64,000 bases of DNA from Candidatus Pacearchaeota archaeon (GCA_023144035.1 JAGLGM010000003.1:15876-79875); one strand, 5' to 3'. Shown: positions 6,136 through 62,073, counted from the first letter of the stretch. Numbers and translations: made by a program. The notes: generated by a model from the sequence alone, not told the origin.

Positions 6136-6495
6136 ATGGCAAATGAAACTAAGGCAATTAAAAATATAAAAGTAACAAAAAGGGAATGGAATAATGTTGG
6201 AAACCTTATTGATTTCTTAAAATTTAGATATAAAAAGGAAGATGATTTTGTTAAATGGTTAATAGGAATCGCTTTAGTATTTTTATTTTCTTCTAGTGTG
6301 ACAAATGTTCTAGAGAGTCAAACAGATTGGATTAGAACCACTGGAGTTGTTATTTTTATTGCTTCTATAGTATTTATTGTTCTATTACTTATTATTCAAC
6401 ATTATATTGATAAAGCTCAAATAGAAGTTATGAAATATCTCTACAAACAAAAAGATAAAAAGAAAAAGGTAAAAGGAAAAACTAAGAAGAAATAG
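6136..6495 (+). CDS. Small membrane protein with Lys-rich tail
   Basis: Two hydrophobic helices, KKKKVKGKTKKK tail. Confidence 0.4.
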   Translation: MANETKAIKNIKVTKREWNNVGNLIDFLKFRYKKEDDFVKWLIGIALVFLFSSSVTNVLESQTDWIRTTGVVIFIASIVFIVLLLIIQHYIDKAQIEVMKYLYKQKDKKKKVKGKTKKK

Positions 6496-13637: not shown

Positions 13638-13726
13638 GGATGCGTAAGTTAATGTTAGACTATGTGGCTCCAGAATTTTTAACATGGAGTTACCACAAAG
13701 CGAGGGTTAGATTCCCTCCGTGTCCA
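13638..13726 (+). tRNA. tRNA-Trp (anticodon CCA at 13670-13672) with 18-nt intron (13674-13691) after position 37
   Basis: Acceptor ggatgcg/cgtgtcc (two G-U), discriminator A, D-stem agtt/gact, anticodon stem tgtgg/ccaca, loop ctCCAg, T-arm gaggg-ttagatt-ccctc. Intron atggag pairs with anticodon-loop ctcca (BHB-like). Confidence 0.6.
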
Positions 13727-29171: not shown

Positions 29172-29264
29172 GGCTCCGTAGCTCAGCCTGGCAGAGCACT
29201 GGACTTTTAGTTGGTAAAACAAGAAGTTATCCAGGTGTCGAGGGTTCAAATCCCCCCGGGGCCA
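29172..29264 (+). tRNA. tRNA-Lys (anticodon TTT at 29206-29208) with 19-nt intron (about 29210/11 to 29228/29)
   Basis: Acceptor ggctccg/cggggcc, discriminator A, D-arm gctc-agcctggca-gagc, anticodon stem ctgga/tccag, loop cTTTTag, T-arm gaggg-ttcaaat-ccccc (one A-C mismatch). Intron aagaagt pairs with actttt. Confidence 0.7.
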
Positions 29265-32700: not shown

Positions 32701-32993
32701 CAAGAGGAGGAGCTTTAAGATTAGGTGAAATGGAACAGCAAGCTTTAGTTGCTCATGGTGCTTCTTTATTATTAAAAGAAAGATATGATTCTGATAAAGT
32801 TGTATTACCAATTTGTACAAAGTGTGGTTCAATCGGTATTGATGACAATATACGAAATAAAATTATTTGTCCTATGTGTGGAAGTGAAGAAATTGAGCCT
32901 GTTGAAGTTTCTTATGCTTTCAAATTATTATTAGAAGAATTACAAGGTTTACATATTCATAGTAAATTTGACTTAAAAAATAAATACGAATAG
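29736..32993 (+). CDS. rpoB: RNA polymerase subunit B (unsplit B''+B')
   Basis: Full-length beta-like subunit with C-terminal zinc motif CTKCGS…CPMCGS. Confidence 0.95.
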   Translation: MVKDSQHLIVKKYLKGHSLVESNIKSFNNFIEKRIQEIVNEISEGIESDDFEINLGKIKVGSPKVIEADGSSSLIMPSEARLRNLTYSAPITLEITVRKDDQVDSETVEIGRIPIMVKSKVCNTAGMSQEELIANYNDGMDPGGYFIIKGNERVMVMAEDLAENQPFVETNKKDILILKMFSSKGTYRIPVNLIENKEGIFELSFSRFRDLPAIVILKALGLTKESDIAKYIGKETDSVIVNLYEFVNLATREDAIMYIAEKTNLQGTKKEILDRAKQRIDSYLFPHIGNKKEDRMKKAVTLCKLIKQFLIAKENPQLRTDKDHYANKRVRLSGDLLSTLFRVNLGILIRDIQYSLQKSAKRKKFFSIKVLAKSTLFSHRVESAIATGSWTGERSGITQNMDKTNYLATISQLQRVSSMLPSDQENFMARTLHPTHYGRFCPIETPEGTEIGLRKNLALLSQVSTRTDLNEDKFLKELESLGLNKEGVKGREVFFNGRFVGSIENHNDFVQEIREKRRNNELPLQMSIRDDESFQTISISTEPGRVLRPLIILENGAPRLKNEHLIQLEQNEIQWEDLIKKGIIEYLDAAEEENTLVALYEEELTPKHTHLEIDNIALFGVVTGLVPYGNHDQSSRLNRGSKTQKQALGLYSANYLCRTDTDVSILQYPQKPIVRSFIYDTLNTYPAGQNLTVAIMTYEGYNMEDALVFNKGSVDRGVGRSFYYRPYSAVEMNYAGGLKDEIAIPEKDASGYKMESSYRFLENDGVIFPEAEIKEGEVLIGKMSPPKFLSEAREISVRTKKESSVTMRQEEKGIVDAVFVTEDSEGNKIVQVKTRDQRVPELGDKFATSHGQKGVIGMIIPENDIPFTSNGIKPDVMFNPHGLPSRMTVGYLLELLAGKVGCLKGEVIDGTSFSGTSKKELGKQLEQLGFRFDGKETMYNGITGKKMEAKIFVGNLYYLKLKYMVGNKIHGRASGKVALLTRQPIEGRSRGGALRLGEMEQQALVAHGASLLLKERYDSDKVVLPICTKCGSIGIDDNIRNKIICPMCGSEEIEPVEVSYAFKLLLEELQGLHIHSKFDLKNKYE

Positions 32994-32996
32994 CGA

Positions 32997-33037
32997 AGGA
33001 CACCTCGCGGTTTCCTACCGCACTACCTTCCCTTAAA
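32997..33037 (+). other. 41-nt conserved element in the rpoB-rpoA spacer; second copy inside the tRNA-Ser intron
   Basis: aggacacctcgcggtttcctaccgcactaccttcccttaa vs 61964-62004 aggacacctcaacggtttcctaccgcactaccttcccttaa (2 mismatches); relatively GC-rich. Confidence 0.5.
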
Positions 33038-33062
33038 AATAAAAAACCAAAAAACAAATAAA

Positions 33063-36000
33063 ATGGCAAAAGCAGTTAGAAAAAAAATAGGAGAAATTAA
33101 ATTTTCTTTAATTAGTCCTGACCAAATCAAAAAAATATCTTCTGCTAAAATTGTAACTCCTGAACTTTATGATATTGACGGTTATCCTGTTGATGGTGGT
33201 TTAATGGATTTAAGATTAGGTGCTATTGATCCTGGTGTAAGATGTAGAACTTGTGGGGGAAGATTAAAAGAATGTTTAGGACACCCAGGAAGTATTGATT
33301 TAGCTAGACCAGTTATTCACTTAAAATATATTCCTTTAATTGAAATGTGTTTAAGATGTTTTTGTCATGATTGTGGTAAATTAATGTTAGAAGATAAAAA
33401 TTTAGAAAAATTAGCTCCAAGTCAAAGAGCTAAAAAAGCAAAAGATTCTAAAAAATGTCCTCATTGTCAAGCAACTCAAACTAAAACTAAGTTAGATAAA
33501 CCTACAAATTTCTTTAAAGGAAAAACAAGAATATTTCCAACAGAAGTTAGAGAACTTTTAGTGAATATTTCTAATGACGAATTAAAAAAAATTGGAGTTG
33601 ATCCAGATAATTGTAGGCCTGAATGGGCTGTTTTAACTGCATTATTAGTTCCACCTGTAACAGTAAGACCAAGTATTATTTTAGAATCAGGTGAAAGAAG
33701 TGAAGATGATTTAACACATAAACTTTCAGATATTATTAGGGCTAATCAAAGACTATGGGAAAATTTAAATGCAGGTGCTCCTGAAGTTATTATTGAGGAT
33801 TTATGGGATTTGTTACAATTTCATATAACAACTTTCTTTGATAATACAACAACAAGAATTCCTCCTGCAAGACATAGAAGCGGTCAACCTTTAAAGACAA
33901 TTACAGAAAGAATAAAAGGTAAAGAAGGAAGAATTAGAAAAAATATTGCAGGTAAAAGAGTGAATTATTCTGGTAGAACTGTTATTTCTCCTGACCCTTA
34001 TATTAATATAAATGAAGTAGGAATTCCACATGAAATTGCAAGAATTGTTACTGTTTCTGAAATAGTTAATGATCTTAATCTTGAGAAATTAAAGGATTTA
34101 GTAAGGCAAGGAGAAACATATCCTGGTGCAAATTATGTTATACGTCCTGATGGAAAAAGAAAAAAAATAACAGAAGAATTAAGAGAAGAAATTATTAGTG
34201 AACTTTCTCCAGGTTATCAAGTTGAAAGGCATTTACAAAATGGAGATATTGTATTATTTAATAGACATCCAAGTCTTCACAGGGGAAGTCTTATGGCTCA
34301 CTATGTAAAAGTATTGCCTGGAAGAACATTTAGATTACATCCTGCTGCTGCTACTCCTTATAATGCTGATTTTGATGGTGATGAAATGAACATACACTCT
34401 CCACAAACAGAAGAAGCAAGAGCAGAAGCAAAAATACTTTTAGATGTTAAAAGAAATCTTATGTCTCCTAAAAATAATACAAATTTAGTTGGGTGTATTG
34501 GAGATGCTATTACTGGAAATTATTTATTAGGTTTTAATGAACTTTCTAAAGAAGATACAAATCAACTTTTATACAAATCAGGATTAGATTATTCTGTTTC
34601 AAAAAAAATGGTTTCTGGACTTGAAATCTTCTCGAAAATATTACCTAAAGTTAATTTTTCAAATGATTCTATAACAATTAAAGATGGAGAAATTACTAAA
34701 GGAGTTATAGATAAAACTACTTTTGGTGATGAAGATGGAGACTTAGTTAAAGAACTTGATAAAACTGTAGGTAGAACTGAAACTTTTGAAACTATTAAAC
34801 GAGCTTTTAATTTAGGTAAAAATTATCTTACTGATCATGGAATTACAACTTCTGTTGAAGATTTAGATTTAGATGAAAAAGTAATTGAAGCTGGTGAAGA
34901 AATAATTAAAAAAGCTGAGAAAAAAACAAATGAATTAATTTTATCTTATAATGAAGGAACTTTAGAAAGTATTCCTGGAAAAACAAAGGAAGAATCAAGA
35001 GAAATAAAAATCTTACAATCTTTAAATGAAGTAAGAACAAAAATTGGAGAAATTGTTAAACGAGAATTCCCTGCTTCAAATCCAGTTAACCATATGATTA
35101 AATCTGGAGGAGGAGGAAATATTCTTAATATTACTCAAATGGCTTCATGTGTTGGTCAACAAGCTTTAGGAAATCGTAGAGTTGATTTTGGTTATACAGG
35201 AAGAACACTTTCATTTTTCCAAAAAGGAGATTTATCTCCAAAATCAAGAGGTTTTATTAGAAATTCTTTTATTAAAGGTTTAAGGCCAGATGAATTCTTT
35301 TTCCAAGCAATTACAGGAAGAGATTCGCTTATGGATACTGGTTTGAGAACACCTAAATCAGGTTATTTATATAGAAGATTAGCAAATGCTTTACAAGATT
35401 TGAGAAAAGAATATGATGGAACAATTAGAGATAGTAATAATAATATTATTCAATTTAAATATGGAGATGATGGATTAGATGTTACCAAACTCCATATTAA
35501 AGGAGAATTAGATTCTGGAGAAGCAATAGGAATTGTTACTGCACAATCATTTGGAGAAGCTTCAACACAAATGGTTTTAAGAACATTCCATATGGCAGGT
35601 GTAGCAGAGATGCAAGTTACCCAAGGTTTACCAAGAATTATAGAAATTTTTGATGCAAGAAAAAAACCTTCTTCACCTAAAATGGAAGTTTATCTAAATA
35701 AAGAATTTAACAATGAAAAAAATGCAAAAATCTTTGCTGAAAAAATTAAAGAAGTTAAATTACAAGAAATTTCTTCTGAAATTATATTGGATTTTGGAAA
35801 TAAAAAAATTGAAATAAAAATTGATGATAAAGGATTAAAACAAACTCATGCTTCTATAAATAAAATTGTTGAAAGATTAAATGAAGCTGGATTTAAAGTT
35901 AAAGAAAAATCAAATTCAATAATTTTAAACGTTGCTGAATTTGAATTTAGAGAAATATATAAACTTAAAGAAAAATTAAAAGAAACTATAATTTCAGGCA

Positions 36001-61641: not shown

Positions 61642-61772
61642 AGCGAGGTGGAGCAGTCTGGAGTGCTCGTCGGGCCCATAAGTAAATCCTTGCAGGATTT
61701 TTCATTCCTGCATAATCTTAGGATTATACGAGGAAACCCGGAGGTCGCGTGGTTCAAATCCCGCCCTCGCTA
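61642..61772 (+). tRNA. Initiator-type tRNA-Met (anticodon CAT at 61677-61679) with about 55-nt intron (61682-61736)
   Basis: A1:T72 acceptor agcgagg/cctcgct, discriminator A, D-arm gagc-agtctggagt-gctc, anticodon stem tcggg/cccgg (three G-C), loop ccCATaa, T-arm gcg[t]gg-ttcaaat-cccgc (single-nt bulge). Confidence 0.55.
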
Positions 61773-61921: not shown

Positions 61922-62073
61922 GCCCAGATCGCATAGTGGTTATTGCACCGGATTGCTAAGCACAGGACACCTCAACGGTTTCCTACCGCACTACCTTCCC
62001 TTAATGGATTGTAGAAGTTAACGCAAAGATCCGGACCCTTCGGGGTGCGTAGGTTCGACTCCTACTCTGGGCG
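61922..62073 (+). tRNA. tRNA-Ser (anticodon GCT at 61955-61957) with about 70-nt intron (61960-62029) and long variable arm
   Basis: Acceptor gcccaga/tctgggc, discriminator G, D-loop with GG, anticodon stem ccgga/tccgg, loop ttGCTaa, variable arm acccttcggggtgc, T-arm gtagg-ttcgact-cctac. Intron 3' end gcaa pairs with ttgc (BHB-like). Confidence 0.65.
61964..62004 (+). other. Second copy of the 41-nt element, inside the tRNA-Ser intron
   Basis: See 32997-33037. Confidence 0.5.

Follow-up and report, generated by a model that had tools for sequence, protein, structure and literature searches.

A family of about 45-nucleotide elements in tRNA introns, rRNA spacers and gene junctions of Pacearchaeota and related archaea

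A 64,000-nt stretch of DNA from a Candidatus Pacearchaeota archaeon (here called the window, part of a 142-kb metagenome scaffold with 27% G+C) contains, in the spacer between rpoB and rpoA and in the intron of a tRNA-Ser gene, two copies of an element of about 45 bases that belongs to a large family; the family is previously undescribed as judged from Rfam and from the literature searched, in which no description of it was found. Gain or loss of copies is seen at orthologous sites of three kinds (tRNA introns, an rRNA spacer and a gene junction). The RNA that the copies occupy is discarded or tolerated: they lie at intron starts, in the 23S leader, in the leaders and trailers of tRNAs, and in the one or two bases that are free where genes abut. 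On sequence comparison the family is best read, with a probability of about 0.55, as a small non-autonomous and strand-specific insertion element of DPANN archaea of the Pacearchaeota/Woesearchaeota/Nanoarchaeota group.

The origin, growth and spread of archaeal tRNA introns is an old question, for which the family offers before-and-after sites: one tRNA without intron, with a short intron and with this intron grown by a defined block of 50 nt; rRNA spacers contain the block as well, and it is found wedged in the stop codon between two essential genes. To our knowledge, similarity has been the sole ground for inferring "transposition" of archaeal tRNA introns, and no mechanism came with it; with such sites the question of intron spread becomes testable in metatranscriptomes, in complete DPANN genomes and by in-vitro splicing. 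In practical terms, the element hides tRNA genes from standard tRNA finders and breaks short-read assemblies, and in some lineages it uncouples rpoB from rpoA.

The two window copies and the anatomy of the family

The sequence-only reading that preceded this analysis described a 41-nt element that starts 4 nt after the rpoB stop and recurs inside a predicted 70-nt tRNA-Ser intron with identity at 39 of 41 positions. Direct reading of the sequence finds both copies at these places in the same orientation (both + strand), and the tRNA-Ser with its 70-nt intron is real, being recognised by Rfam (47 bits) and by ARAGORN with introns allowed. The count of 39 of 41 holds only with a gap, the differences being one substitution and one 1-nt indel (ctcGCgg versus ctcAACgg) that map to the loop of the family hairpin. 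In the window the 28-mer GGTTTCCTACCGCACTACCTTCCCTTAA has exactly two occurrences (+ strand in both cases: 33009-33036 and 61977-62004; chance expectation 0 in 100 shuffles), each preceded by AGGACACCTC; the copies have in common AGGACACC, an exact 29-mer and similar 5' ends, the hairpin loop being the sole difference in the element part so shared. By the family consensus the true start lies earlier than the 41-nt extent, at G32993 in the spacer, which is the last base of the rpoB TAG, and at G61960 in the intron, one base past the 5' splice site; these 5' ends were missed because GCGAAGG and GCACAGG differ at two positions. A gcgg/ccgc hairpin noted earlier is confined to the spacer copy and is not the conserved structure of the family, whose common hairpin pairs AGGACACC with GGTTTCCT (32997-33004 with 33009-33016; 61964-61971 with 61977-61984). 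The covariance model R1 scores the spacer copy at 70.3 bits over 32992-33045 and the intron copy at 65.2 bits over 61959-62013 (Table 1). A 3-mismatch search and a short-word BLAST returned no further degenerate copies in the window.

Table 1. Coordinates of the element copies and of their host and comparison genes in the window.
Feature	Position	Strand	Basis
rpoB, 1085 aa	29736..32993	+	Pfam Rpb2 domains 1-7, ORF list
Spacer copy, core GCGAAGGACACC-tcgc-GGTTTCCTACCGCACTACCTTCC	32993..33031	+	sequence, covariance model R1, family alignment A1
Spacer-copy hairpin, 8-bp inverted repeat AGGACACC + GGTTTCCT, one C.U mismatch, loop TCGC (33005-33008)	32997..33016	+	
Invariant pyrimidine-rich tail ACTACCTTCC of the spacer copy	33022..33031	+	
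A-rich rest of the rpoB-rpoA spacer, CTTAAAAATAAAAAACCAAAAAACAAATAAA	33032..33062	+	junction comparison
rpoA, fused A'+A'', 1162 aa	33063..36551	+	Pfam Rpb1 domains 1-5
tRNA-Lys(UUU), 19-nt intron without element	29172..29264	+	"empty" comparator for L075
tRNA-Ser(GCU) gene	61922..62073	+	Rfam tRNA 47 bits; ARAGORN tRNA-Ser(gct) i(39,70); fold
tRNA-Ser(GCU) exons	61922-61958 + 62029-62073		
tRNA-Ser(GCU) 70-nt intron, at canonical 37/38	61959-62028		
Intron copy, core GCACAGGACACC-tcaac-GGTTTCCTACCGCACTACCTTCC, begins 1 nt past the 5' splice site	61960..61999	+	
3' extension CTTAATGGATTGTAGAAGTT of the intron copy	62000..62019	+	by-eye comparison
tRNA-specific 3' end of the tRNA-Ser intron, AACGCAAAG	62020..62028	+	MFE fold + sequence

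The match between the window copies is confirmed as real and as one pair from a large family. That the two places resemble each other by chance or through an assembly artefact, for which the breaking of short-read contigs at the element sequence might be taken to speak, is refuted by the shuffles (0 matches expected), by the independent assemblies L003 and L004, which carry the identical intron and dispose of the assembly chimera raised earlier, and by more than 100 copies in unrelated samples. Two Logan contigs (L005, L006; positions 1-13) break inside the element, as expected at a repeat; they end there though the exact run shared in this genome is 29 nt only, which suggests more, slightly different copies in the same samples.

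The search for further copies, which the sequence-only reading had proposed, yielded 118, of which 102 are unique, in genomes of Pacearchaeota, Woesearchaeota and Nanoarchaeota and in metagenomes. A 20-mer core matched 31 stretches when one genome per species was searched; 30 of these belong to Pacearchaeota, Woesearchaeota or Nanoarchaeota MAGs, often with several per genome, and the single bacterial match has only the 20-mer in common. This first search held the tail constant, while a second pattern, in which only the 5' half and the hairpin were fixed, added 83 stretches in a metagenome scan. Up to about 7 copies were seen per genome, with at least 7 on one 856-kb contig. The flanks of the 20-mer matches gave the consensus (A)GCGAAGGAMACC-loop-GGTTTCCTACCGCACTACCTTCC, in which the core of about 45 nt consists of GCG, an 8-bp hairpin AGGAMACC/GGTTTCCT with free loop, CGC and a 10-nt pyrimidine-rich tail, and may be followed by variable 3' extensions.

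Conservation was counted only at positions not fixed by the search in question. On this basis 9 of 12 positions of the 5' half show 96-100% conservation; in the tail, which still reads GC(A/T)CTA(C/T)CTTCC in the copies found without constraining it, 10 of 12 positions reach 94-97%. Right after CCTTCC the values drop to 40-85%, which delimits the core sharply, as a unit of about 45 nt. Its loop comes in 28 different sequences, some with inserts of 35-55 nt. R1, built from 28 copies, recovered a few more diverged members, one of them with the compensated stem AGAAAACC/GGTTTTCT. In the covariation analysis, also suggested earlier, the hairpin is 94% paired, but it is nearly invariant, and the only doubly changed stem pair is equalled by 56 of 500 shuffles, so that formal covariation support is weak. 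No conserved pairing partner of the tail was found in tests of local and rRNA pairing. Base A is enriched at position -1 (78 of 102 copies). The clear 8-bp inverted repeat of the element is internal, not terminal, the terminal one being imperfect (AGCGAAGG/CCTTCCCT, 7/8 match), and "TA...TA" flanks are readable at three filled sites, where the 3' boundary is ambiguous and the DNA AT-rich, so that they could be due to chance.

The sequence that follows the core is of at least two types, since the core is followed in many copies by a further small hairpin with a conserved GGCTGAT (CTTGAG-loop-CTCARGG-CTGAT; L048, L053, L010, L072, L080, L106, L109, L113) and in others, including the tRNA-Ser intron of the window, by TTAATGGRTTG... 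The extension CTTAATGGATTGTAGAAGTT of the intron copy resembles, by eye only, CCCTTAAGGGATTGATGAGCGGTGTT of the rRNA-spacer copies (L067, L053, L063) and is missing from the rpoB spacer copy. Tandem or nested copies are found in L013, L018, L033 and L053; in L013:1845-1937 (minus strand), after the hjc stop codon, the tail region is tandem, with a 50-nt period and about three decaying copies.

Permissive Rfam scans (E <= 10) of both window loci and one spacer copy returned only chance-level matches, and no snoRNA family reached threshold. The suggested L7Ae site is not borne out, the core of both window copies having no K-turn, C box (RUGAUGA) or D box (CUGA); UGAUGA-like and CUGA strings occur only in some 3' extensions. 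A guide-RNA target or rRNA pairing gains no support either, as the tail pairs with 16S and 23S rRNA of element-bearing organisms no better than shuffled tails. Resemblance or pairing to the 16S 3' end was rejected as well (score against a generic 16S within the shuffle range), together with a second hairpin between the tail and the downstream intron (mean z = -0.34 versus shuffles) and a long-range GAAGG/CCUUC pairing or HDV-like P1; for the last two, the frequent A-to-C change of GCGMAGG is uncompensated, and in the variant L023:1795 compensation takes place inside the hairpin.

A new small self-cleaving ribozyme cutting its own 5' edge would account for the constant coincidence of the 5' boundary with a processing site, and the precision of this boundary with no upstream sequence requirement, the unpaired conserved nucleotides beside a stem whose loop takes 35-55-nt inserts and the dispersed, sense-oriented occurrence typical of ribozyme-bearing repeats agree with it. 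It is nevertheless extremely improbable: the stem sequences are invariant, with no covariation, one hairpin and a 3-bp helix make too simple a fold, no Rfam ribozyme matches, L023:1795 contradicts an HDV-like pairing between GCGAAGG and the tail, and cleavage at UA/G would destroy the stop codon of the host mRNA.

Positions of the copies in tRNA introns, rRNA spacers and stop codons

Copies were counted as intronic when they lay inside tRNAs called by ARAGORN with a canonical intron; 66 do, in more than 20 tRNA species and all in sense orientation, and in 40 of 41 well-called hosts the GCG is 0-3 nt from the 5' splice site. The remaining copies include those of the 16S-23S spacer, of tRNA ends and of the stop codons of unrelated genes. 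The sequence-only reading had regarded many dispersed copies with no positional conservation as the mark of a simple repeat family; the copies are indeed many and dispersed, but their positional rules are strict (5' splice site, stop codon, 23S leader).

In the predicted fold of the window tRNA-Ser, GCAA of the intron 3' end pairs with UUGC of the anticodon loop and forms the central helix of a relaxed bulge-helix-bulge, with 3-nt bulges and with an outer intron helix that is weak or missing. As part of the preferred explanation, and with the same better-than-even confidence, most of the 70-nt intron would be element sequence removed by the splicing endonuclease. The tRNA-Lys(UUU) genes form a series with no intron (L114), with a 19-nt intron (window) and with an enlarged intron (L075), the last having near-identical exons and the 3' part of the 19-nt intron placed after a block of about 52 nt that is the element; intron enlargement is visible directly because filled and empty versions of such sites exist.

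All four tRNA genes of the window have introns (13638-13726, roughly 15-20 nt; 29172-29264, 19 nt; 61643-61772, about 55 nt; 61922-62073, 70 nt), and only the tRNA-Ser intron holds the element. The gene at 61643-61772 (+), 150 nt upstream of the tRNA-Ser, is an initiator-like tRNA-Met(CAT) whose intron lacks the element; it is called neither by ARAGORN at default settings nor by Rfam even at E <= 10.

In the 16S-23S spacer, a copy is present in L067, L118, L087, L053 and L048, and L115, cut by a contig edge, fits the same layout; it lies after the spacer tRNA, 95-155 nt upstream of the 23S gene and just outside the predicted processing stem. The corresponding spacer of L096 is empty, with the sequence TTTGAGA/CAAATAGTCAATG (here and below a slash marks the insertion point), and at this site L067 has about 75 additional nt and L053 about 125, with a second partial copy. 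The 16S genes of L067 and L096 are 95% identical, and L115, at 89%, is filled. Another orthologous copy lies 0.9-1.6 kb upstream of 16S (L067:5842-5893, L096:5959-6010, L012, L093, L099, L119) and is preceded by ...GTGGATTACAAA; in L012 the copy overlaps a possibly over-called 156-aa ORF of the other strand. The 23S rRNA of L118 spans 4.1 kb (L118:2396-6521) versus the 2.99-kb model, corresponding to about 1.1 kb of insertions, presumably rRNA introns.

At tRNA ends, copies directly follow the discriminator base in L068, L078 and L094, and in L056 and L076, which are one orthologous pair, a copy abuts the 5' end of a tRNA-Thr on the other strand. In a further group the first 14-15 nt of a tRNA, to the conserved A14, are fused to the element (L030:6187-6238, L031:126-179, L055, L082, L100, L114; L059:44-97), and where this tRNA is a tRNA-Ser, the intact gene comes 60-75 nt further on, so that the 14-15 nt flank the insert as a direct repeat. 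Such duplication upstream of an intact tRNA-Ser (L030, L031, L055, L100, L114), the breakpoint of L059 at the same position (14/15), the lone tRNA 3' half of L022 and the layout of the L030 type, a miniature of the tRNA-fragment arrangement in PMC3293823, could be taken for the scar of site-specific integration, that is the attachment region left by a tRNA-targeting integrative plasmid or virus after deletion. This origin is very unlikely for the family: many sites are not tRNAs (rpoB, hjc, P1, rRNA spacer), no integrase or large insert adjoins any copy, the 29 kb that separate the window copies contain rpoA and other genes, on a single 142-kb scaffold, with no integrated element recognisable there, and a scar would not preserve a precise 45-nt core in more than 100 places. 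A viral vector was also rejected, the IMG/VR viral contigs containing no match, and the window copies were dismissed as att sites of a 29-kb island because the interval starts with rpoA and holds ordinary chromosomal genes.

The L022 locus (minus strand, around 6250-6304) consists of the 3' part of the element followed by the 3' half of a tRNA, where ARAGORN calls no tRNA; no 5' part of the element was found within 1.7 kb upstream. The locus may be a remnant, or else a split tRNA gene in which the element hairpin pairs the two halves. A gene hidden in the hairpin loop was rejected as a general explanation of copies with "no 5' part", three of the four cases being spurious pattern matches and only L022 real.

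At the rpoB-rpoA junction of the window, the first base of the element completes the rpoB TAG (32991-32993), and the distance from this stop to rpoA is 69 nt versus 1 nt in relatives. The junction was compared in eight relatives at 68-84% identity. It is empty, with the sequence "...GAA TAA A ATG", in L121, L124, L126, L127 and L128; L123 has the same GAA TAA A ATG string within frameshifted gene calls, the genes of L125 overlap and L122 has a 35-nt spacer without the element. The filled form "GAA TA/GCGAAGG..." is found in the window, in the 91%-identical relative L097 and in L021, and with an offset of 3 nt ("TAA AA/GCGAAGG") in L089; overall, the element is present at 4 of 12 rpoB-rpoA junctions. 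From the filled and empty forms it follows that the element sits inside the ancestral TAA (TA/A) and that its own G restores the stop as TAG. The A-rich remainder of the spacer probably arrived with or after the insertion, because the relatives with an empty junction lack it.

In 12 rows, representing about 8 genes, the G of GCG is the third base of the TAG ending an ORF of 97-1111 codons. The hosts are rpoB (three species), hjc, the acidic ribosomal protein P1, phosphoglycerate mutase, a TIM-barrel protein (twice), a zinc-ribbon protein and an unknown protein, and no common function was found among the genes compared. The operon junction of abutting genes is the only spot tolerating insertion, which explains the stop-codon rule.

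Several features of the rpo locus were recorded in addition. In the window the rpoB TAG and the rpoA ATG are in one frame, with no other stop across the 69 nt (32991-33065), and readthrough of one codon would fuse RpoB and RpoA; this is not so in L021, and the arrangement is therefore probably accidental. A coding or readthrough peptide was rejected, since the length differences of the loop do not keep the frame and L021 has an in-frame stop next. rpoB is a single gene in the window and in L097 (1085 aa in both) and in L021 (1103 aa), and is split in two (about 400-490 aa and 560-670 aa) in the relatives L121, L125, L127 and L128, at 68-83% identity; rpoA is one fused gene of 1151-1188 aa in the window, in L097 and in the five relatives with a full-length call. 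Between the element, a few bases away, and rpoA, L097:3680-3868 has about 175 extra nt with a 62-aa ORF that has no Pfam match, and L021 holds an unrelated 101-aa ORF at this place.

Sense orientation, constraint and proposed mode of spread

Orientation is strictly sense in introns (66 of 66) and in rRNA spacers. Among the dereplicated other contexts, the copies between co-directional genes are 8 sense and 0 antisense, a same-strand gene precedes the copy in 16, and only L056 is in a clearly antisense setting. At rpoB the copy has hardly changed between species with only 68% RpoB identity, and the elements of the window and L097 have only two differences, both in the 4-nt loop. Inert old insertions should decay, and each copy therefore seems to be under selection, or the site to be re-invaded repeatedly; the element sequence is constrained, either by the host or by the needs of its own propagation. 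Presence is patchy at every orthologous site examined (rpoB-rpoA, tRNA-Lys(UUU), rRNA spacer).

Constraint of this kind fits the main rival reading, a less probable but serious one, of a host-functional RNA module, whose hairpin and invariant tail would bind a conserved protein or RNA and of which each copy would be kept by host selection. Bacterial REPs protect the mRNA 3' end just after the stop codon. A similar protection is a candidate role of the module, along with marking or stabilising the excised spacer RNA, forming a helix by the 5' splice-site bulge or giving rise to an abundant small RNA from tRNA and rRNA processing. The 94-100% invariance of stems and tail around a free loop, the near-identity of the rpoB copies across 68% RpoB identity, the confinement of the window/L097 differences to that loop and the strict sense orientation are in line with it; moreover, at the tRNA-linked positions (intron 5' end, leader, trailer, 23S leader) normal processing would set the element free, and the GCG helix begins beside the 5' splice-site bulge. 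Against it, the patchy presence means that no single site needs the element, three other intron-bearing tRNAs of the window splice without it, tandem and nested copies resemble the behaviour of repeats, K-turn, C/D boxes, Rfam family and rRNA target are all lacking, and covariation gives no support for a selected RNA fold. If the invariant tail does bind a host factor, it would represent a new abundant RNA motif of DPANN archaea. The two readings, host module and insertion element, are not exclusive.

The insertion-element reading, one of the options named at the outset as a small mobile insertion, gains support from filled and empty orthologous sites in three contexts, and it is from such patterns that we infer mobility as a process, a mechanism for it and the existence of a partner. 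The element would spread by a strand-specific or RNA-linked mechanism, selection would purge copies everywhere but in discarded RNA, and the near-invariant stem and tail would be the putative recognition site of a trans-acting factor needed for spread. Ordinary DNA repeats insert in both orientations, and the sense-only occurrence of the element was counted against this reading, together with the imperfect terminal repeat, the lack of matches on viral contigs and the little decay of the rpoB copy. No transposase, reverse transcriptase or autonomous parent element was found next to any copy, and no presence/absence polymorphism was seen between very close strains.

Movement of the element as RNA is conceivable but improbable as the specific route. 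The excised intron, which begins with a 5'-OH at (A)GCG, could be joined by an RtcB-type ligase to the 2',3'-cyclic-phosphate ends left by endonucleases in other transcripts; such acceptor ends would come from the 5' exon of a different pre-tRNA, from cleavage in a D-loop or in a pre-rRNA loop, or from an mRNA cleaved behind the second stop-codon base in the ribosomal A site. The chimera would then become fixed in the genome through reverse transcription and recombination. Such a route would account for the sense-only orientation, for insertion exactly at RNA-processing positions, for the TA/G junction and for the intron-sized (about 65 nt), A-rich insert at rpoB-rpoA and, if true, it would provide a first mechanism by which archaeal bulge-helix-bulge introns are gained and spread.

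Comparison with known systems

Archaeal tRNA-Trp introns can encode a C/D box sRNA. Like this sRNA, the element is a conserved RNA in a tRNA intron, predicted to be released by splicing, but its core has no C/D box or K-turn and it occurs in more than 20 tRNA species instead of one; for the latter reason it cannot be a guide for its own host tRNA. Bacterial REP/BIME repeats and MITEs such as Correia are found in both orientations, usually with species-specific sequence, and we know of none in tRNA introns. The element shares with them the nature of a short palindromic, multi-copy, non-coding repeat that lies between genes and after stops, is co-transcribed and differs in presence between relatives; unlike them, it is sense-only, mostly intronic and conserved across Pacearchaeota, Woesearchaeota and Nanoarchaeota. 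In particular, presence/absence at orthologous sites is found as in MITEs but insertion in either orientation is not, and the extragenic hairpin after stops recalls REP/BIME but without their alternating orientation. In comparison with PATE of the IS200/IS605 type there is no constant 5' tetranucleotide, the 5' flanks being variable (anticodon loops, TA, CT, CA), and in comparison with attL/attR there are no direct repeats around a mobile gene set, the 29 kb starting with rpoA.

In Caldiarchaeum subterraneum, a mobile element disrupts a tRNA gene through a 1.8-kb insert encoding a recombinase, and an integration-deletion origin of intron gain was proposed (Sugahara et al. 2012, PMC3293823). 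A tRNA 5' fragment upstream of an intact tRNA (L030, L031) and an intron gain tied to insertion are common to both systems; unlike that of Caldiarchaeum (PMC3293823), the insert described here is of 60-70 nt and contains no gene, and most copies show no tRNA-fragment duplication. The closest likeness in intron distribution is to the transposed tRNA introns of Thermoproteales, which, as summarised in PMC4090602 (after Fujishima et al. 2010), are near-identical in tRNAs for different amino acids, implying spread after tRNA divergence. As in that family, highly similar intron sequence is found in non-orthologous tRNAs, here of more than 20 species. Relative to the Thermoproteales introns, the family differs in that only a discrete 5' module of about 45 nt is common, not the whole intron; in that this module was put into pre-existing canonical introns and also into rRNA spacers, tRNA flanks and stop codons; and in that it belongs to a DPANN lineage for which filled and empty orthologous sites are at hand.
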